64,000 nt of DNA, from positions 3,100,001 to 3,164,000 of the forward strand of contig NC_089435.1 in assembly GCF_026210795.1 (NCBI RefSeq). Reading direction: 5' to 3'. The notes beneath the pieces were generated by a model. That model made no database searches, was not told where the DNA came from, and saw only the letters and a list, made by a program, of their open reading frames with translations. This document shows, one piece after another, positions 39,687 through 63,710 of the stretch (position 1 is the first letter of the stretch; each line of letters opens with the position of its first letter). The stretch is from Rhizophagus irregularis (taxonomy: Eukaryota). A program made the position numbers and the translations under genes.

Positions 39687-41260
39687 GATCGCCGGTCATG
39701 TGATTATTCGATTAACACTATTATAAAAAAAATTTACTTTTTTTTTTGCTTCCCGGTAACTGGCGTCATTTTAATATTATTAAGTAATAGTTCTATCAAT
39801 TTTTTTTAGTAATAACAATAAGTTTTGGTGATAAGAATATTTTTTTTTTGTAACAATAGATTTGATAATGGGAATTTTTTTTTGATATAAATTTTTTTTA
39901 AATATATTACTATGATATAATCTTCTGTAATAATACATTCGTATGATAATATTCTTGATGAGAAATTTATATTTTTTTTTGGAACAATTAATTATTCGAG
40001 TCTGAATAAACCATAAATTCTATAATACTTAATATAATAATCATATTGTAAATATAACTACTGTATGTTCAGTATTATATTAAATACAAATCTACATGAT
40101 TGTAAAAGTTAAATAAAATAATAATGCTCTAACCATTATATATTAATAATTAGTAAATACATTAGCTCATTAAACTAGATAAATTCATTACTGTAGAAAG
40201 TTATTTATGTTTTATTATAAAGAAAATTTTAAATTTTAATGAAAGCCTAATTAATAGACTCTAAATATAGGTAATTAGGTGCCATATTACTTTATTACTG
40301 TAACATTGTTTTTTTTAATCCGGTAAATGGTTTATTTTAAGATATCTATCAAGACTTTGCTTGTCCAATTTAATTGAATATTTCACCCTTTGTCATTAAT
40401 AATTTTCGCAGTTGGTTTATCATTCTCATAGTTCTCTGCAAAATCCAAGATTTAAATCTAAAATATTATATTCCTTTATCAATGAATTAATAAAAAAATT
40501 AGTTACGTTCTAATTATAATTCTTAAATTAAATGTAAATTTACGAAAGTGACTTAAAATTTGTAGAAGCTTACCATAAAAATTAGAAATCCTATCTTATT
40601 GAACGAAATGTTTTTTTTTTTAGAATTGTGTGCACATTAAATTTATAATTAATTATGTTTGATATTTGCACAACGGAAATCTCTGCGTAGTAATCATTGT
40701 TTTTTTATTGTTCCTCTACATTCTCGGACAACAAAGGCTTTTTAAAAAGGTTTTATGGGTCATATAATTTATATATTAATTGATTAAGAAAGTCAAAAAA
40801 AAAATTTTATTATTTTCACGCTAAGTTAATGCAACTGCGCCATATTATTGTCCCCACGTGAATTTTCTGCAAGAAGGAGCCGAGCAATACATAGAAAGGT
40901 AACCCAAATAAAGTGTAGATCCTTCCTTTTTGTTAATGACAGGCGGCATTATGTCATTCCCTGAAGAGATACATAGAGCTAATAGTGAATGAGTGCCAAT
41001 CTCTTGTTACCTATTTATATATTGCAAAGTTCCGTTACTTCGATACCTATAGAATTTATTTATTCTTTGATGGAATTCTTGTTAAATTTCATTCCAAAAT
41101 AAGCTTCTAGATTATTTACTCGCAAGGAATGAATGCATAGAATTTTTCATGGAAATTTGGAAAAAAATTCCGTGTTAAATTTTACTACATATATATATAC
41201 TAGAAAGTTTACTTGAACGTTACAAATAAATGAAATTTTTATTTTAGATAATTTGAAGTA

Positions 41261-43289
41261 ATGGAGCAACCAGTATATTATAAACATAAAATTGACTTTT
41301 TAATATCGGACAACACGCCTTCAATTCAGCCGACACAAAACTCACAAAACATATATAAGAAATGTAATGAATGTAATAGAAAAAGAAAAATTTTTGATAA
41401 AAGTCACGAGATTTGTCACGTGTGTTACAATATAAAGACTATACTTAAGCCTAAACAAAGTGGAAACAAAGTTGTTGACGATTTTATCAGATATACTCAA
41501 AGTAATTATGCTTTTATAGAAGATGGTAAAATGGAGCTTATTCCTTATGATCAATTCACCAATATAGAATTTATTGCTGAAGGAGGATTTAGTAAAATTT
41601 ATAAAGCTACTTGGGTTGATGGTCCTATCAATAATTGGAATAGGATTAAAGATGATTATTGGAATATTACTCGTAGAAAAAATTATACCGTTGTTCTCAA
41701 AAAGCTTAACAATTCTAAAAACATTACACCCAAGGAACTGAATGAGGTATGGCAAATTCTATATGTTTTAAATCTTCAATATGATGATGATAAATTAATT
41801 AGTTCAAGATATTTTATCAGATTTATTCAGATAAGAATGCACATAAAAGTTATATTAGTAATTATTTTGGAATTACTCAAGATCCTATTACCAAAGATAT
41901 TATAATTATTATGCCATATTATAATTCAGGTGATTTGATACATTATATAAGTAACGAATTTTATAATATTAATTGGGGAACAAAGTTGAATAAATTATGT
42001 TATATAGCAATTGGACTTAATAATATACACAAAGCAAAAATTGTTCACAGGGATTTACATAGTGGAAATATCTTCTTCGATGGACATACTGCGCATATAG
42101 GTGATCTTGGAATAAGTAAATCTGCAATTGAATGTACAGAAGATAGCAATGAGAATTATGGTATTATTCCTTATATGGCACCAGTTATTTTTCAAGGGCA
42201 AAAATATACAGAAGCTTCGGATATATATAGTTATGGGATGATTATGTGGGAATTTATGACAGGTAGAAGGCCTTTTTGGAATGAAAATCATGATATTGAA
42301 CTTATAATCAAAATATGTGATGGTTTACGACCATCAATTGTTACAAATGCACCTAAAGAATATATTGAATTAATGAAAGAATGCTGGCATTCTGATCCAG
42401 AACAAAGACCAAATGTTAATAATATATCTGGCAAAATTTGGGCAATGTTTATAAATGAAAATGATAGTACAAGTTTAACTAAAATTATAAAATCATCAGA
42501 TATTGGACCTGTAACAATAAATAATCTAGGCGCCGTTTATAAGAGTAGACCTTTAAGTCACATGATTCAATCTGCAATGTCATTAAGGAGTTCAAGAAGT
42601 CAATCTATCGGTAAATAATTTTATTATACTGAATACTGCAGAAAAATTCTGACTTTTTTTTTAATAATTATTTAGATCCATTAGATCCATTTTATTATTA
42701 TCAGAAAAATAGCAAGGCATCTTCTGCTGGTAATTACTCGGGTTTCGTTTAATGTGACGTTTGTATTAATATTAATAATATTATAATTTTAAAGATAAAA
42801 GAAAGGTTGATAAAGGTTCGGTTGAAGACAGTAATATCAACGGTATGATAAAGTTAGATTCCATGCATAATTATCTAATAAAAATTGATAACCCTATATA
42901 TTTTATTGTGTCTTCAATTATTTTAATTTTCATTTACGAATTTTTTTTAAAAATACAATTTAGATCAAAGTATTAAAAGGAGAAAATTATTTGAGAATGA
43001 AAATTATGGTAAGCAAATTCTATTTTTAGATAAATAACATTTTTATTATTATGTAAATTCTTAACTTTAAATAGATTTAAATTCTTCTTTAGATTATCTT
43101 ACGAAAGAAATCGAATTAGATATTAACGCAAATATGAGTCAACAACAACATAACGGTGAGTAAATACTCTGTTTTTCTTTTAAAAATATATAAATAATAG
43201 TTTTAATTTTTTTTTAATTTATAAAAATAGAATATGTTACCAAGGAATTTGATATAGATATTAATAATATTGATGAGTCAAATTTATAG
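41261..43289 (+). CDS. TKL-type protein kinase; exons 41261-41746, 41803-42610, 42676-42729, 42795-42842, 42964-43008, 43093-43155, 43231-43289
   Basis: CxxC..CxxC N-terminus, SGNKVVDDFI, EGGFSKIYKA, VVLK, HRDLHSGN, DLG, APV, ECW..RP; all GT-AG junctions join in frame. Confidence 0.9.
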
Positions 43290-52178: not shown

Positions 52179-53772
52179 GGGAATTGGTAAACTTCGCCTG
52201 GGTCGATCACGTGGCAGATTTAATACTTTTGATTGGCCAGATTTGCCACATGATCACTTTAATTGTAGGCTCGAGGTTCGTTTCCTTGGTTCTTTCGGTC
52301 TCAAGGTATTTTTCTTTTTTCTTTTATTTTTATTACTAACTTACATTCTTACACTTTGTTTCTTACTAACTCTATTTCATTATTTAGTCCTTCCGGTTCT
52401 GCAATTAAGGTACAGTTGTTTTTCACTTTACATTTCGTTTCTTATTTTTTATTTTTTTTTTTGTTTCTGGTTCATATTTCATTTTTAACTAATTTTATTT
52501 CATTTTTTTTTAGATCTTTTAGTTCTTTCGGTTCTACAATTAATAAAGGTATTTTTTTTTTATTTATTTTTTTTTTGTTTCTATCTTATATTTCGTTTCT
52601 TACTAACTTCACTTTATGGTTTATTTTTTACCTGGTTTCCTATCATTATCTTTTGCTACCCAACCTTCTATGAGATTTTGATCGGATACCCTAACCGATA
52701 TGGGAAATTTACCATTGTTTGAACTATTTTTACTACGTGAAAAAAACACTCGAATGCACGTGATCCGGTGATCTGTAGTAATTGACGTATTTTTTGTTGC
52801 CACCTTGCCACCTTATAAAATTTTATCATGATCTTTTTTTATTTTTTGTCTCTCATCATTTTTCACCTCCTATTACTTCTCATTATTCCATCCTTTTCGT
52901 CTCCCATTATTTCTATTACATCTTTTCATTTTCCATTATTTCTTTTTCTCTCCTGTTTACTTCCCATCATTTCTTTTTGTCTCTCATAACTCCTTTTCGT
53001 CTCCCATCACTCCTCTTCATTTTCCCATAACTTTTTTTGTCTCTCGTCACTTCTTTTCGTCTCCCATCACTCCTCTTCATCTTCCCATCACTCCTTTTCG
53101 TCTCCCATCACTCCTCTTCATCTTCTCATTATTCCTCTTCATCTTCCCATTGCTCCCTTTCATCTCCCATCACTCCTTTTCGTCTCCCATCATTCCTCTT
53201 CATCTACCCATCACTCCTTTTCGTCTCCCATCACTCTTCTTCATCTTCTCATTATTCCTCTTCATCTTCCCATCGCTCCTTTTCATCTCCCATCACTCCT
53301 TTTCGTCTCCCATCACTTTTCTTCATCTTCCTATAACTCCTTTTCATCTCCCATCATGTCCTATTTCTCCTTTTGTTTCCTATCAATTCACATTACTCTT
53401 TTTTACTCCCTTTCATCTTCTATTACTTTCCATTACTTCATTGTTATTTCATTTTTTTATTAGCATCTTTCTTCTTGATCATTGAAATTTACTTAATATC
53501 TTTCTTTTATTGTATCACTTCATTAAAAATAAATGGTGATTTTTTGCTTTAAAATCGAAAACGTGTGATTTAAATTTTAATATTTGCAAATAAATTTCAT
53601 TAGATAAGATTATTTTAAATAAATATGTTTGCAAAAATTTTTTTTTTAAAATATCTTTTGCGATAAAATTTTAAGTTTAGCCGATCAAAAATTAGCTAAG
53701 TTGATTCTTTATATATTGTACATCATGTGACATATTTGGAAAAAAAACCCCCGGCGATGTTTAACAATTCCC
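52179..53772. mobile_element. Non-autonomous TIR element with 4-bp AATT TSD (Sola-like)
   Basis: TIR GGGAATTG(G/T)TAAAC(T/A)TCGCC; AATT on both sides; the empty site is seen in the other Helitron copy near 24010. Confidence 0.75.
52975..53360 (+). repeat. Pyrimidine-rich ~20/21-bp minisatellite (CTCCCATCACTCCTTTTCGT / CTTCCCATCACTCCTCTTCAT)
   Basis: Directly visible. Confidence 0.9.
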
Positions 53773-54826: not shown

Positions 54827-57800
54827 ATGGACCAATGTATTGGTAAAGGTAAAGCATATAACATGAATAATAATATAAATTAGAATTATTCAAAATTATT
54901 AAAACAAACTTGCAATATAATAAAACTAGTTTTGTGTGATACCAAAGAACCCAAAGGTAAATATAATATACAAAACAAAATTGAAATATTAAGATTTTTA
55001 TTTATTAAAAAAACTTAATTATAAATAATCAAATATATTAAACCAAATTTGCAATATAATAAAACTAGTTTCCAGTAATATTGAAGAATTTGAAGAAAGT
55101 GGCACTGAAGAATTTGAAAGAAGTAGCATTGAGAAATTTGAAGAAAGTGGCACTGGAGAATCTAAAGGTATATCAAACAAGCTAAAATATTAAATTTTTA
55201 TTTATAAACAATTCAAATACTATCTAGGCTAACTATTTTATATAAAAATTATATTAAATATTTAGCTTGTAAGTTAATATAATGAATTACTCATTATTTT
55301 TATTGTATTCCATATAACTAAATAATTTATTTAATGATTAATAATACTGTAGTTGGTAAGTAATTGTTATCGGTCATGTTGTAGATGATAACTGATTTAC
55401 CACTAGGATTGCTATGTATATCATATGACCGAAGGCCGCATGATAGAGTAGCATCCTAGTGTAAATCAGTTATCATAAACATGACTGATAATAAAGTTAT
55501 TGGATATGTATGACGTAAAGCAACTGAGACCTTTTTCGCGTATCTTATTTATTATTTTATAATAATGTGATCAAAATTTTGTATATCACTAATTATAAAG
55601 TGACCAAAATTTGTGTATCACTATTATAAAGTGATCAATAACATACGTGAAAAATGTCCAGTGCTTACATAGAACATATACAATAAGTTATCAGTTATTT
55701 AAACCTTTAGTCCTTTACTACTTTATTTATTCTAACATAACATTCAAATAACTAAATTCTTTGTTTAAATAACTATTTAATTATTAATTATATTACAGAT
55801 AGTAAGTTACAATATATATATTATATTTATTTGTTTAATATTTTATATAATTCAACTAATTATATTCTTAATTTAAATAACTAGATTGTAAGTAATATAT
55901 ATAATATACAGTAAATACTTTTATATTATCTTTATATTTAACTAATTAATAATTAATAATACTACAGGGTGTAAGTTATATGATGTCTATATTGATATTA
56001 TTTATATAATTTAACAAATTTCTTTATTTAAAAATTATTAAATAATATAGGGTGTAAGTTATTTATTTAATTCTATTATTACTTATTGTTATAATATTTA
56101 CATATAATTTAGACTAACTAATTTCTTTATTTAAAAAATTATTAAATAATATAGTTCGTAAGTTTTTTATTATTACTTATTGTTATAATATTTACATATA
56201 ATTTAAACTAACTAATTTCTTTATTAGTTCGTAAGTTAATTTATTTAATTCTATTATTACTTATTGTTATAATATTTACATATAATTTATACTAACTAAT
56301 TTCTTTATTTAAAAAATTATTAAATAATATAGTTCGTAAGTTATTTATTTAATTCTATCATTACTTATTGTTATAATATTTACATATAATTTAGACTAAC
56401 TAATTTCTTAAAAAATTATTAAATAATATAGCTCGTAAGTTATTTATTTAATTTTATTATTACATATTGTTATAATATTTACATATGATTTAAAGTTTTC
56501 AACTAACTAATTTCTTTATTTAAAAAATTATTAAATAATATAGCTCGTAAGTTATTTATTTAATTCTATTATTACTTATTGATATAATATTTACATATAA
56601 TTTAAACTAACTAATTTCTTTATTTAAAAATTATTAAATAATATAGAGAGTAAGTTATTTATTTAATTCTATTATTCTTATTGTTATAATATTTACATAT
56701 AATTTAAACTATCTAATTTCTTTATTAGTTCGTAAGTTATTTATTTAATTCTATTATTACTTATTGTTATAATATTTACATAATTTAAACTAACTAATTT
56801 CTTTATTTAAAAAATTATTAAATAATGTAGGGCGTAAGTTATTTATTTAATTTTATTATTACTTATTGTTATAGTATTTACATATAATTTAAACTAACTA
56901 ATTTCTTTATTTAAAAAATTATTAAATAATATAGTTCGTAAGTTATTTATTTAATTCTATTATTACTTATTGTTATAATATTTACATATAATTTAAACTA
57001 ACTAATTTCTTTATTTAAAAAATTATTAAATAATATAGAGAGTAAGTTATTTATTTAATTCTATATTCTATTATTACTTATTGTTATAATATTTACATAT
57101 AATTTAAACTATCTAATTTCTTTATTTAAAAAATTATTAAATAATATAGTTCGTAAGTTAATTTATTTAATTCTATTATTACTTATTGTTATAATATTTA
57201 CATATAATTTAAACTAACTAATTTCTTTATTTAAAAAATTATTAAATAATATAGCTCGTAAGTTATTTATTTAATTTTATTATTACTTATTGATATAATA
57301 TTTACATATAATTTAAACTAACTAATTTCTTTATTTAAAAAATTATTAAATAATATAGTTCGTAAGTTATTTATTTAATTCTATTATTACTTATTGTTAT
57401 AATATTTACATATAATTTAAACTAACTAATTTCTTTATTTAAAAAATTATTAAATAATATAGAGAGTAAGTTATTTATTTAATTCTATATTCTATTATTA
57501 CTTATTGTTATAATATTTACATATAATTTAAACTATCTAATTTCTTTATTTAAAAAATTATTAAATAATATAGTTCGTAAGTTAATTTATTTAATTCTAT
57601 TATTACTTATTGTTATAATATTTACATATAATTTAAACTAACTAATTTCTTTATTTAAAAAATTATTAAATAATATAGCTCGTAAGTTATTTATTTAATT
57701 TTATTATTACTTATTGATATAATATTTACATATAATTTAAACTAACTAATTTCTTTATTTAAAAAATTATTAAATAATATAGTTCGTAAGTTATTTATTT

Positions 57801-60800
57801 AATTCTATTATTACATATTGTTATAATATTTACATATAATTTAAACTAACTAATCTCTTTATATTTAAAAACATTATTTAATAATATAGCTCGTAAGTTA
57901 TTTATTTAATACTATTATTACTTATTGTTATAATATTTACATATGATTTAAACTAACTAATTTCTTTATTTAAAAAATTATTAAATAATATAGTTCGTAA
58001 GTTATTTATTTAATTCTATTATTACTTATTGTTATAATATTTACATATAATTTAAACTAACTAATTTCTTTATCTAAAAAATTATTAAATGATATAGTTC
58101 GTAAGTTATTTATTTAATTCTATTATCACTTATTGTTATAATATTTACATATAATTTAAACTAACTAATTTCTTTATTTAAAAAATTATTTTGTAATTAT
58201 TTTAGTTGGTAAGTCATAAGTTATTTATTTAATTCTATTATTACTTATTGTTATAATATTTACGTATAGTTTAAACTAACTAATTTCTTTATTTAATAAA
58301 TTATTTAATAATATAGAGAGTAAGTTATTTATTTAATTTTATTATTACTTATTGTTATAATATTTACATATAATTTAAACTAACTAATTTCTTTATTTAA
58401 AAAATTATTTTGTAATTATTTTAGTTGGTAAGTCATAAGTTATTTATTTAATTCTATTATTACTTATTGTTATAATATTTACATATAATTTAAACTAACT
58501 AATTTCTTTATTTAAAAAATTATTAAATAATATAGAGAGTAAGTTATTTATTTAATTCTATTATTACTTATTGATATAATATTTACATATAATTTAAACT
58601 ATCTAATTTCTTTATTTAAAAAATTATTAAATAATATAGAGAGTAAGTTATTTATTTAATTCTATTATTCTTATTGTTATAATATTTACATATAATTTAA
58701 ACTAATTAATTTCTTTATTTAAAAATTATCAAATAATATAGAGAGTAAGTTATTTATTTAATTCTATTATTACTTATTGTTATAATAATTACATATAATT
58801 TAAACTAACTAATTTCTTTATTTAAAAAATTATTAAATAATATAGAGAGTAAGTTATTTATTTAATTCTATTATTACTTATTATTATATTATTTACATAT
58901 AATGTAACTAACTAATTTCTTTATTTAAAAATTATCAAATAATATAGAGTGTAAGTTATTTATTTAATTCTATTATTACTTATTGTTATAAACTAACTAA
59001 TTTCTTTATTTAAAAAATTATTAAATAATATAGGGCGTAAGTTATTTATTTAATTTTATTATTACTTATTGTTATAATATTTACATATAATTTAAACTAA
59101 CTAATTTTTTTATTTAAAAAATTATTAAATAATATAGGGCGTAAGTTATTTATTTAATTTTATTATTACTTATTGTTATAGTATTTACATATAATTTAAA
59201 TTAACTAATTTCTTTATTTAAAAAATTATCAAATAATAGAGTGTAAGTTATTTATTTAATTCTATTATTACTTATTGTTATAAACTAACTAATTTCTTTA
59301 TTTAAAAAATTATTAAATAATATAGGGCGTAAGTTATTTATTTAATTTTATTATTACTTATTGTTATAGTATTTACATATGATTTAAATTAACTAATTTC
59401 TTTATTTAAAAAATTATTAAATAATATAGAGAGTAAGTTATTTATTTAATTCTATTATTACTTATTGTTATAATATTTACATATAATTTAAACTAACTAA
59501 TTTCTTTATTTAAAAAATTATTTTGTAATTATTTTAGTTGGTAAGTCATAAGTTATTTATTTAATTCTATTATTACTTATTATTATATTATTTACATATA
59601 ATGTAACTAACTAATTTCTTTATTTAAAAAATTATTTATGATCTAGCTTGTAAGTGTCTCTATTGTTATATATTTTATATAATATTTATTGGTTAACTGA
59701 ATTCTTTTATTTGAAAAATATCTGTTACTTTAGTCGGTAAGTTGTAAGTCATAGGTTATTATATGTATTTATCTAAAAATTAAGACTTATATTTCATTAA
59801 ATCCCTATTTAAATTTTAGAGTAAGTAATAATTTATTTTGTATAAATTATAATATAATCTACAATATAATTTTAACTATTTAAATTTATAGATTTGGGAA
59901 AAGTGGAAATACAATTATAGATGATTTTGTTCTTAAAAAACGATTAAAATGGATTCCTTATAACAAATTTAAAAATGTTGAATATCTTAATGAAGGAGGA
60001 TTTGGTACTATATACAAAGCTAATTGGTCAAATGGAGTTGGAGAAGTAATACTTAAATGTCACAAGAATTTAAATGAAAATTTAAATGAATTTTTGAAAG
60101 AAGTATGATAGTATATTATTTTCTATTTTTAATTTAAATTAAAATTTATTTATAATAATAAATTATTATTATTATTTTATAGTGGGAATATCATACAAGT
60201 GTTTTAAGTTCAATCAATATTATAGATATTTATGGATTCACAAAAGATCCAAATACATCGAAATATATGGTAGTAATGGATTATGCAAATAAAGGTAATT
60301 TAAGAGAAAATTTAACAAGTATAGTCAAAAATAATTGGAATCAAAAATTATATATGTTGTACGAAATTATTTCTGGACTTAGTAAGATACATGAAAAAAA
60401 TCTTATTCATTGTGATTTTCATGATGGTAATATTTTAAATCATAGTAATAAGGATAAGGATAAAATTTATATTAGTGATTTAGGATTATGCCAACCTATA
60501 AAATCATTTTTGGAAAAATATGATATTTATGGTGTTATATCATTTATGGCTCCTGAAGTTTTAAGAGGCAAATCTTATACTCCAGCTAGTGATATATATA
60601 GTTTTTCTATGATTATGTGGGAACTTACATCTGGGGTACCACCATTTAATAATAGAGCACATGATATTCAACTTAGTTTGAGTATTTGTAAAGGTGAACG
60701 TCCTGAAATTATTGAAAATACTCCACAATGTTATGTAGATTTAATGAAAGAATGTTGGAATGAAGATTCATCAAAAAGACCATCTTCTAAAGAAGTATTA

Positions 60801-61378
60801 GAAATTATTGAAAAATGGATTTTCCGTCCTGATGATGATGAAATTAATGAAGAATTAGAAAGCAACATTATGGAATTTATAAATGCACCAATTGGGCATA
60901 ACAATCTTGCTACTAAATCTCATCCTAAAGCATGTTTTACAAGTCGCTTACTTGATTTTACTAGTAAAAAATTGAATGAAATTCTTGAAAATGAAAATAC
61001 ACAAGCATCTCATGCAAGTCATTCAGATTTGAATGATTGTGTAATTAGAGGAGATTTGATGTCATTAGGTATATACTATAATATATAAAAAATTAATCTT
61101 GCAAATTATTTATATGAAATTAATTAATTTATTTAATTATTCAGATGAGAATACTAGTAAAAAGTTGAATGAAATTCCTGAAAGTGAAAATTCACAAGCT
61201 AGTGTAAAAGCAAATGAAATGCTAGTAAGTGAAGATTTGAATGATTATATAATTAAGGGTCTGGGGTCATTAGGTATGTACTATGATATATAAAAGAATT
61301 AATCTTGTAAATTATTTATGTGAAATTAATTTTATTTAATATTTAATTTATTTAGATATTAAAGCAAATGAAAATTAA
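54827..61378 (+). CDS. TKL-type protein kinase with a microexon array; exons 54827-54842, 54930-54956, 55069-55167, [42 x 3 nt], 59820 (1 nt), 59892-60102, 60183-61068, 61145-61273, 61356-61378
   Basis: MDQCI-VLCDTKEPK-VSSNIEEF..GESK-[array]-EFGKSGNTIIDDF..KWIPY..EGGFGTIYKA..ILK..HCDFHDGNIL..DLG..APE..ECW..RP; every junction is GT-AG and in frame. Confidence 0.85.
55266..59820 (+). other. Array of 42 putative 3-nt microexons plus one 1-nt exon
   Basis: Every unit reads yAG|NNN|GTAAGT; the homogenised unit carries a CTAAC/CTAAT branch site about 35 nt upstream of the AG. Confidence 0.85.
56010..59640 (+). repeat. ~104-bp tandem repeat (one intron + one 3-nt exon), about 35 homogenised copies
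   Basis: Consensus GTAAGTTATTTATTTAATTCTATTATTACTTATTGTTATAATATTTACATATAATTTAAACTAACTAATTTCTTTATTTAAAAAATTATTAAATAATATAG-NNN. Confidence 0.97.
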
Positions 61379-61814: not shown

Positions 61815-62300
61815 ATTTGAATTAGCACTCATACATTTATAAGCTAATTTCTTATAAAATTCGGGAGTTCCTTACCCAAATTCTGGCTTAATCCCATTAC
61901 ATATGGCTAATGCTAAACTTAAAGGTGATTTTCCAGATGATAATTCAGCCACAGCAGATAATTTATATGGTTCACCGTTTAAGACTTCTGGTGCAATATA
62001 TAGCAATACTCCATACACTTTATCATCTAAGTTTTGTTCATTTGCTGGTCCATATAATCCAAAGTCTTCTGAAATGAGAGATAAAGCAGTAGTATGAATT
62101 TGTAGGATATTCCACTATGAAATCCCTACGGAAATATCCTGATAATATAACATATTCAAGAAATTATTTGAAGAATACTTCTCAAACCCTCAGTAAATTG
62201 TTTAGTCATCATAAATTCTTTAGCTTCTTAGTTACCATAAAGCTTTAATCCTCCAAACTTAGATACTTCCCAATGTATTTTAAGTTATATCTACAATGAA
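61815..62300 (-). pseudogene. Degenerate TKL kinase pseudogene
   Basis: Minus strand RDFHSGNILQ, DFGLYGPANEQ..VYGVLLYIAPEVLNGEPY, AELSSGK, LALAICNG.KPEF, KCMSAN; stops and deletions. Confidence 0.85.
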
Positions 62301-62899: not shown

Positions 62900-63710
62900 A
62901 ATGTTCGTGGAGAATTTTTTCTTTTTTTTTTATTAGATTTTTTATAAAATAAAATTTTGGTGTTTTTTTTAATATAGGTAAAGCTCTTCTTTGATGGCAA
63001 TTTCTTTGAGTAATTTTCTTTAATAGAAAAGAATTTTTTTTTTGATAAAATATTTCGTTCGAGAATTTTTTTTATTGATGAGGGAAATTTCCTTTAATAG
63101 AGGAGTTTTTTTTTATGGATAATTTTGTTAAAGAATTTTTAATAAGGAGATTTTTTTTGACAGATAATTTCTTTGGAATTTTTTTTTTAACAGGAGAGAT
63201 TTATTTTTTATAGAGAATTTCATTGAGAATTTTTTAATAGGGAAGAATTTTTTTTCTTGATAGATAATTTTTTTAGAAAATTATTTTAGCAGGGATATTT
63301 TTTTTTTGATAAAGACTTTCATTAAGAATTTTTTTAACAGGAGAGATTTATTTTTGATAGAGAATTTCATTGAGAATTTTTTAATAGGGAAGAATTTTTT
63401 TTCTTGATAGATAATTTTTTTAGAAAATTATTTTAGCAGGGATATTTTTTTTTTGATAAAGACTTTCATTAAGAATTTTTTTAACAGGAGAGATTTATTT
63501 TTGATAGAGAATTTCATTAAAGAATTTTTCTTTAATAGGGAGATAAATAATATTGCTGAGAATCTTTTTATAGAAATTACATTGTGGAATTTTTTTTTTA
63601 ATAGAAAAGAAATTATTTTTTTTGATAGTTCGTTAGTAAATTTTTTAACAGAGGGGATTTTTTTTTTGATAGAATTTCGGTAAAGAATCCTTTCTTAATA
63701 ATAGGGAAGG
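62900..63710 (+). repeat. Degenerate ~30-bp tandem repeats with a recent ~146-bp duplication (63183-63520)
   Basis: TTTTAACAGGAGAGATTTA...GACTTTCATTAAGAA repeated. Confidence 0.75.

Follow-up and report, generated by a model that had tools for sequence, protein, structure and literature searches.

Position 59820 of the DNA stretch analyzed here (the window, 64 kb in full) carries a single adenine that is likely a true one-base exon of a protein kinase gene, spliced as such when the gene is expressed. At the level of the gene family, this exon is supported by RNA and by conservation. For the window copy itself, as for all 42 three-base exons upstream of A59820, we infer the splicing. One-base exons and arrays of codon-sized exons are each already known, and what is new is an out-of-phase run of codon-sized exons ending in a one-base exon that is shared across a gene family.

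Kinase gene model

The window is AT-rich eukaryotic DNA and contains a large open reading frame (60183-61085) encoding a kinase of the PF07714/PF00069 families. The PF07714 score of the large exon was 121 bits (cut-off 23.1), and the Pfam search returned only kinase families on the large exon and no match on two other exons. Among the best 120 of 1035 matches, the named relatives were proteins of Rhizophagus irregularis, R. clarus, and R. diaphanus. The best matches shared 80-99% identity with the window gene, and the top database protein agreed with it in 333 of 338 residues over both kinase exons. Judged by its domain and its close Rhizophagus relatives, the window gene appears to be one of the expanded PF07714 kinases of Rhizophagus.

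The predicted model, which includes A59820, comprises 50 exons on the forward strand and is open over 507 codons, with one final stop and no internal stop. All 49 introns have GT..AG ends, and a YTRAY motif was found 8-50 nt before the intron end in 45 of them, being absent from the other four (4/49). The predicted first coding exon (54827-54848, 22 nt) begins with ATG and ends in phase 1, and similar N-termini occur in the annotated relatives P0031, P0005, and P0136. Predicted exon 2 (54930-54956, 27 nt, phase 1 to 1) has a homologous peptide in P0031, P0032, and P0005, and predicted exon 3 (55069-55167, 99 nt, phase 1 to 1), called from its sequence, consists of acidic 24-bp repeats; the peptide of exons 1-3 was matched in 9 of 166 relatives. 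Downstream of the array of three-base exon sites (55266-59736) and of A59820 itself follow the first kinase exon (59892-60102), which starts in phase 2 and is backed by sequence, RNA, and relatives, and the second kinase exon (60183-61068), assigned to PF07714/PF00069 by Pfam and homology. The kinase motifs are present. The model ends with a predicted 3' exon (61145-61273) and a predicted last coding exon with the stop codon (61356-61378), for which an RNA joint equivalent to 61273 to 61356, with GT..AG ends, was found.

Several other features were observed in and around the gene. The exon at 61145-61273 is a second version of the last part of the large kinase exon (56% over 36 aa), and sister-gene RNA joints, e.g., 60985 to 61179, suggest that the repeat number varies in this region. 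A kinase fragment on the reverse strand (61818-62114), just 3' of the gene, is probably a remnant. Tandem repeats flank the gene at 52960-53356 and 63106-63529, with periods of about 41 and about 48-147 bp. The window also holds a second kinase (41252-42618, forward strand), which is distant (36-39% identity), has a continuous Cys-rich N-terminus, and contains no microexon sites.

One-base site and reading frame

A first-pass annotation, made from the sequence of this DNA, had read TTTTAG-A-GTAAGT at 59820 as a one-base exon between introns of 83 and 71 nt. This was borne out: the upstream intron spans 59737-59819 and the downstream intron 59821-59891, both with GT..AG ends. A59820 is therefore one base between AG and GT, flanked by two introns of ordinary size, which is what a one-nucleotide exon consists of. 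The 71-nt intron has a branch-like motif 17 nt before its end, and the 83-nt intron is one of those with no YTRAY motif. The phases given in that annotation also agreed with our count, as exons 1-3 sum to 148 nt and leave the frame in phase 1, and the kinase exon at 59892 needs phase 2. With the A, as the middle base of a Glu codon, the 507-codon model is open; if the A is left out, the frame is closed off almost at once, within the kinase exon's first codons.

The frame arithmetic had further been offered as independent support for the one-base exon. The arithmetic itself is correct, but it is weak alone because other frame-fixing routes exist. The second donor at 59744, named earlier as an alternative, is real, and the resulting 10-nt exon (59734-59743) opens the frame too; a phase-1 acceptor that lies within the kinase exon (giving an exon start at 59921), and which had been missed, also restores it. 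The model needs A59820 for its frame, and neither of these two other routes is the majority form in sister-gene RNA.

We compared the site with chance expectation. YAG-N-GTAAGT occurs once in the 64-kb window against 0.61 expected, and the one-base motif alone is not above chance because 46 of 100 window shuffles reach this number. Within the 155-nt gap that needs a frame fix, the strict one-base motif appeared in 38 of 20000 shuffles and some looser frame-fixing exon (1, 4, 7 or 10 nt) in 2139 of 20000. The frame argument is thus insufficient alone for a one-base exon.

In recursive splicing at a zero-length exon, AG stands directly before GT with no exonic base between them. This candidate was rejected, since the 64-kb window contains no such site (0 YAG-GTAAGT) and the A is kept in sister-gene RNA. 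The last 3-nt exon (59734-59736), known from sequence and RNA consensus, reads TCG in the window and TTG in sister-gene RNA. It is followed by tandem donors 7 nt apart (59737 and 59744, within 59737-59750), of which the second has the donor context of TTG-type units; the pair suggests a short duplication common to some relatives.

Array of three-base exons

The window contains 42 sites of the form YAG-NNN-GTAAGT, all on the forward strand and all within 55266-59736, against 0.73 expected; none of 100 shuffles reached 42, although the sites are not independent because they are tandem duplicates. The motif was found nowhere else in the 64-kb window. In the core of the array (56225-59636), a unit of about 104 bp is repeated in tandem. 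The introns of the array measure 70-109 nt, except one of 443 nt. This sole long array intron (55356-55798) carries inverted repeats at 55380-55481 and 55528-55658, perhaps an inserted element. The DNA thus holds 42 sites for tens of consecutive 3-nt exons, and the last two are matched by the sister-gene RNA consensus.

Variation in the array is concentrated on the three exon bases. Over 31 core units, for which the splice motif itself was the selection criterion, the three exon bases had entropies of 1.87, 1.0, and 1.48 bits, and each of the other 45 flanking positions stayed under 1 bit. The middle exon base was T in 24, G in 17, and C in 1 of the 42 exons and never A (0/42, or 0/11 types), compared with 139 of 365 kinase codons that end in A. 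Likewise, Lys, Glu, Gln, Arg, and Gly codons ending in a purine end in G in 13 of 13 cases in the array and in 7 of 84 in the kinase exons. These base counts are not independent because the units are related by duplication.

Read in phase 1, each codon of the array spans two exons, with one base in the first and two in the second, so that the middle exon base is the wobble base; without A at that place, two of the three stops are avoided when neighbouring units change. Stop avoidance in the order of the array was weak and not significant (P = 0.08). The difference between TCG and TTG in the last 3-nt exon is silent (Phe) only under the phase-1 reading. As a separate observation, eleven 3-nt exons between 56647 and 59432 start with AG (9 AGA, 2 AGT). 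A second acceptor two bases on could yield a one-base exon together with a frame shift in these units, and they are a possible origin of the exon at 59820.

RNA evidence from sister genes

We used three poly(A) raw-read runs (X22, X23, and X24), chosen by the species label that they share with the best matches, and the contig runs X14 and X9, which were only guessed to be RNA (X9 under another organism label). At 85% likeness, 398 of 896 placed X23 reads had loose ends before 59892, and their consensus ended in CTTTTGA; its agreement over 30 letters was 0.59, in line with reads that come from several genes. The loose-end readout is a 30-letter consensus (agreement 0.59-0.74) and describes the majority junction rather than single reads. 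The same ending was found in four contigs of X14 and three contigs of X9. At 95% likeness, 14 X23 and 13 X24 reads were loose before 59892 in the rows listed, and both consensuses ended in CTTTTGA. These letters correspond to CTT, TTG, and A, the window counterpart being CTT, TCG, and A; the penultimate 3-nt exon of the window (59647-59649) has the same triplet, CTT, at that place.

The donor after the A is used in sister genes: in seven X23 reads, each with its own start place, 59820 is joined to 59892 and the 71-nt GT..AG intron is spliced out. These reads have up to 73 letters on the shorter side, and the upstream 83-nt intron is still unspliced in them; two more X23 reads join 59820 to 59893. 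The summed X23 depth was 7-13 at the upstream intron (59748-59819), fell to 1 at 59868-59879, and stood at 481 at 59892-59903, with the intron-retention depths biased because intron reads must match at 85%. X14 contig 9 covered 59736-59820 and had loose letters at either side. The RNA joints listed did not include one from 59824, and the six X23 loose-end rows listed (smallest 56 reads) included none at 59891 or 59921. The junction check proposed by the first-pass annotation therefore came out for the extra A, with the 10-nt exon not the majority form, in reads from sister genes and not from the window copy.

About 178 X23 reads at 59830-59866 were excluded from the intron depths, as they probably belong to an unrelated transcript: their ends are loose at either side, and they have four fixed mismatches absent from the X1 contigs. 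Where a joint appeared only in single X1 contigs and had sides of 20-31 letters, it was regarded as an artefact or as another gene copy.

The assignment of these reads to sister genes follows from the sequence of the kinase exon, where the base at 59929 is not that of the window in 542 of 545 X23 reads, and from the few reads at least 99% like the window (25 of 428, 28 of 509, and 33 of 546 at 95% placement). Since the sister mRNAs carry the A and the window copy has the same site, the same splicing is predicted for the window copy when it is expressed.

Relatives' DNA and database gene models

Scans for related loci yielded three (L001, L002, and L003), all from metagenomes, and none in prokaryote genomes or viral contigs. 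AG-A-GTAAGT lies one short intron before the kinase exon in L001 (82% aa) and L002 (71% aa). Conservation of AG-A-GT in related kinases, which had been suggested as a check, therefore holds in both (2/2) close genomic relatives. L002 also has a 3-nt unit further upstream, and L003, a distant kinase, has an uninterrupted N-terminus with no introns there. The second kinase of the window and L003 were tried as intronless length markers and rejected, since their different, Cys-rich N-terminus does not fix the junction length.

Variants at or above 12% in the X1 contigs made up 11 rows at 59691-59803, and none was listed at 59804-59839, a contrast that is soft evidence because contigs break at variants. 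One X1 contig (loose end 59845) represents a copy with a changed acceptor G before the A. Before its intact one-base exon site, L002 has two decayed microexon-like units at 120-175; one has lost its acceptor, and the donor of the other is weak. Together, the changed acceptor and the decayed units indicate that some copies decay.

Database gene models deal with this region in various ways. Of 235 proteins searched, 85 include residues N-terminal to the F-G-x-S with which the kinase exon starts, and the RNA-supported junction FE/F occurs in none of these 85 informative models. Their junctions were SK/F in 21, LE/F in 9, GKL/F in 2, R/F in 16, and other in 37. Going by the protein models, we suggest that SK/F and LE/F may be predictor workarounds over the AG-A-GTAA site. 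Of the 235 models, 66 begin within the first kinase exon, and the WxPY motif of that exon is missing from 54. Among nine models with at least 18 residues before SK, seven have at least 17 of 20 residues with T or G in the codon middle, compared with 41% in kinase domains. This bias is consistent with a wrong-phase reading of 3-nt exons. In the database relatives, the bias is visible as strings rich in G, I, L, M, V, and R.

Alternative explanations

A different account accepts the one-base exon in the family and holds that the window copy is silent or mostly mis-spliced, its array being a recent, unselected expansion of intron plus microexon. We consider this unlikely, although it carries some weight: the window base at 59929 appears in at most 3 of 545 reads, the 104-bp tandem repeat of the core array is young, and relatives contain decayed units. 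Against a silent copy stand the GT..AG ends of 49 of 49 introns, the lack of an internal stop, the intact kinase motifs, and the database protein with 333 of 338 identical residues; moreover, the RNA runs may derive from an isolate without the window allele.

Three alternative junctions would remove the one-base exon altogether and are, even taken jointly, improbable. It is very improbable that the 10-nt exon 59734-59743 (donor 59744) is joined straight to 59892 with the A skipped. Such an exon opens the frame, the sequence after its donor is that of TTG-type array unit donors, and 2 of 85 database models, plus P0206, use it; the RNA consensus, however, ends in TTG-A and not in the donor letters, and the sister-gene X14 contig 9 runs without a gap at the tandem donors with the 59821 donor spliced. 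A junction from the last 3-nt exon to the acceptor before 59921, skipping the A and the first acceptor and losing about ten residues, has a smaller chance still: although the acceptor exists, fits phase 1, and is used in database models such as P0031 and P0013, the RNA depth is already 481 at 59892-59903 and merely goes from 519 to 547 across 59921, where no loose-end row is among the six listed for X23, versus 398 reads at 59892. We find it scarcely credible that a 5-nt exon (59820-59824, donor 59825) follows an array in phase 0, or that translation starts inside the kinase exons. SK/F junctions in 21 of 85 models suggest that gene predictors use donor 59825, and an internal start would accord with the 66 models beginning in the first kinase exon and the 54 without its WxPY motif. 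Yet the RNA joint begins after 59820, with none listed from 59824, and the 5-nt exon breaks the frame because exons 1-3 are in phase 1. A start at Met 60267, named in the first-pass annotation as a case against the microexon, is disfavoured, as it would drop the glycine-rich loop and the following lysine, elements with a known role in kinases. Points against the one-base exon, which we prefer to all of these, are the missing YTRAY motif in the upstream 83-nt intron, the origin of the RNA in sister genes, and the decay of some copies; moreover, none of the reads and contigs seen connected exons 1-3 with the kinase.

Proposed splicing order and encoded peptide

For the one-base exon, we propose that the two short introns are spliced out in succession by intron definition, with introns of about 70-110 nt being recognised singly. 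The 71-nt downstream intron, which has a branch-like motif, would usually be removed first, fusing the A to the long kinase exon. The slower 83-nt intron, which has no branch-like motif and would be spliced second, would through this fusion be left with an ordinary 3' splice site. The A would turn phase 1, kept throughout the array, into phase 2 of the kinase exon, and the constant last exons would code Phe-Glu, joining a copy-variable peptide to the kinase. A role of this peptide in recognition may be suggested by analogy with the Tuber nank genes.

A bolder and tentative reading, which we regard as possible but doubtful, is that the array is a modular peptide generator in a kinase subfamily of arbuscular mycorrhizal fungi, in which an out-of-phase array and a CTT-TTG-A lock supply a peptide acting as a hypervariable sensor or identity tag. 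If so, each duplication, swap, or skip of a unit would rewrite two codons, and the wobble base, kept as T or G, would let few combinations make a stop. The constant CTT-TTG-A tail with the one-base exon would lock any peptide onto the kinase, and the peptide would vary by gene copy, isolate, and splice form while being invisible to present annotation.

Comparison with known one-base exons and microexon arrays

The published cases are described here from the available excerpts of the sources cited. In Arabidopsis APC11, a one-nucleotide exon, also an A, is needed for the frame and was missed by annotation; a substituted base reappears in the cDNA of a minigene, and stepwise intron removal was proposed (PMC4674806). 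A one-nucleotide exon is likewise reported for plant VPS55, and upstream introns of plant microexons are removed late (PMC8831610). According to these excerpts, APC11 and VPS55 resemble the window gene in having one base between two spliceosomal introns, required for the frame and overlooked by annotation. Their exons, however, lie between ordinary exons in one- or two-copy genes, whereas the window exon ends a 42-site run in a much expanded family; also, the APC11 exon is backed by a mutational test, and the window exon is known from sequence and sister-gene RNA.

Among fungi, the one-nucleotide exon of Fusarium CYP621A bridges a phase-1 donor and a phase-2 acceptor as the middle base of a codon and is confirmed by reads (PMC12940212), and in these respects it is like the window exon. 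In Coprinopsis cinerea, 13 one-base exons are reported (PMC12230235). The first-pass annotation had called 1-nt exons very rare; rare they are, but they have been documented several times, including those 13 in one mushroom genome. Both fungal cases belong to other phyla and gene families, and the available text describes no adjoining microexon array for them. In CYP621, an intronless relative marks the length; none was found for the window gene.

The closest likeness to the array is in the nank (NACHT-ankyrin) genes of Tuber melanosporum, an expanded fungal family with tens of microexons the size of a codon (Iotti et al. 2012, as cited in PMC4986451, PMC10197012, and PMC13449251), for which the same citing papers report alternative splicing. 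By these accounts, nank genes encode NLR proteins, whereas the host of the present array is a PF07714 kinase of a Glomeromycotina fungus, and its array ends in a one-base exon. Identity with nank genes was rejected because Pfam returned kinase families only, but the array may work like that of nank.

Expanded tyrosine-kinase-like kinases have been described in Rhizophagus irregularis (PMC4219462, PMC6123716, and PMC10234402), with 2,533 kinase genes reported (PMC10234402). PF07714 is common to these kinases and the window gene, and microexons are absent from the parts of these accounts that were available. For arbuscular mycorrhizal fungi, neither a one-base exon nor a codon-sized array was found among the literature matches listed, a search that covered the main texts of openly accessible papers.

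Significance

These results give an RNA-supported one-base exon that is common to many gene copies rather than to one gene, in a lineage for which our search found no reported example. The predicted 43 consecutive exons of at most 3 nt would be an extreme test of a spliceosome faced with exons too small to bind, and the partly spliced reads give a checkable order, with the downstream intron removed first. For a kinase subfamily of the model mycorrhizal fungus, the annotated N-termini are out of frame or truncated (0/85 informative models with the junction), and this misannotation hides a variable peptide that could bear on the expansion of these kinases.
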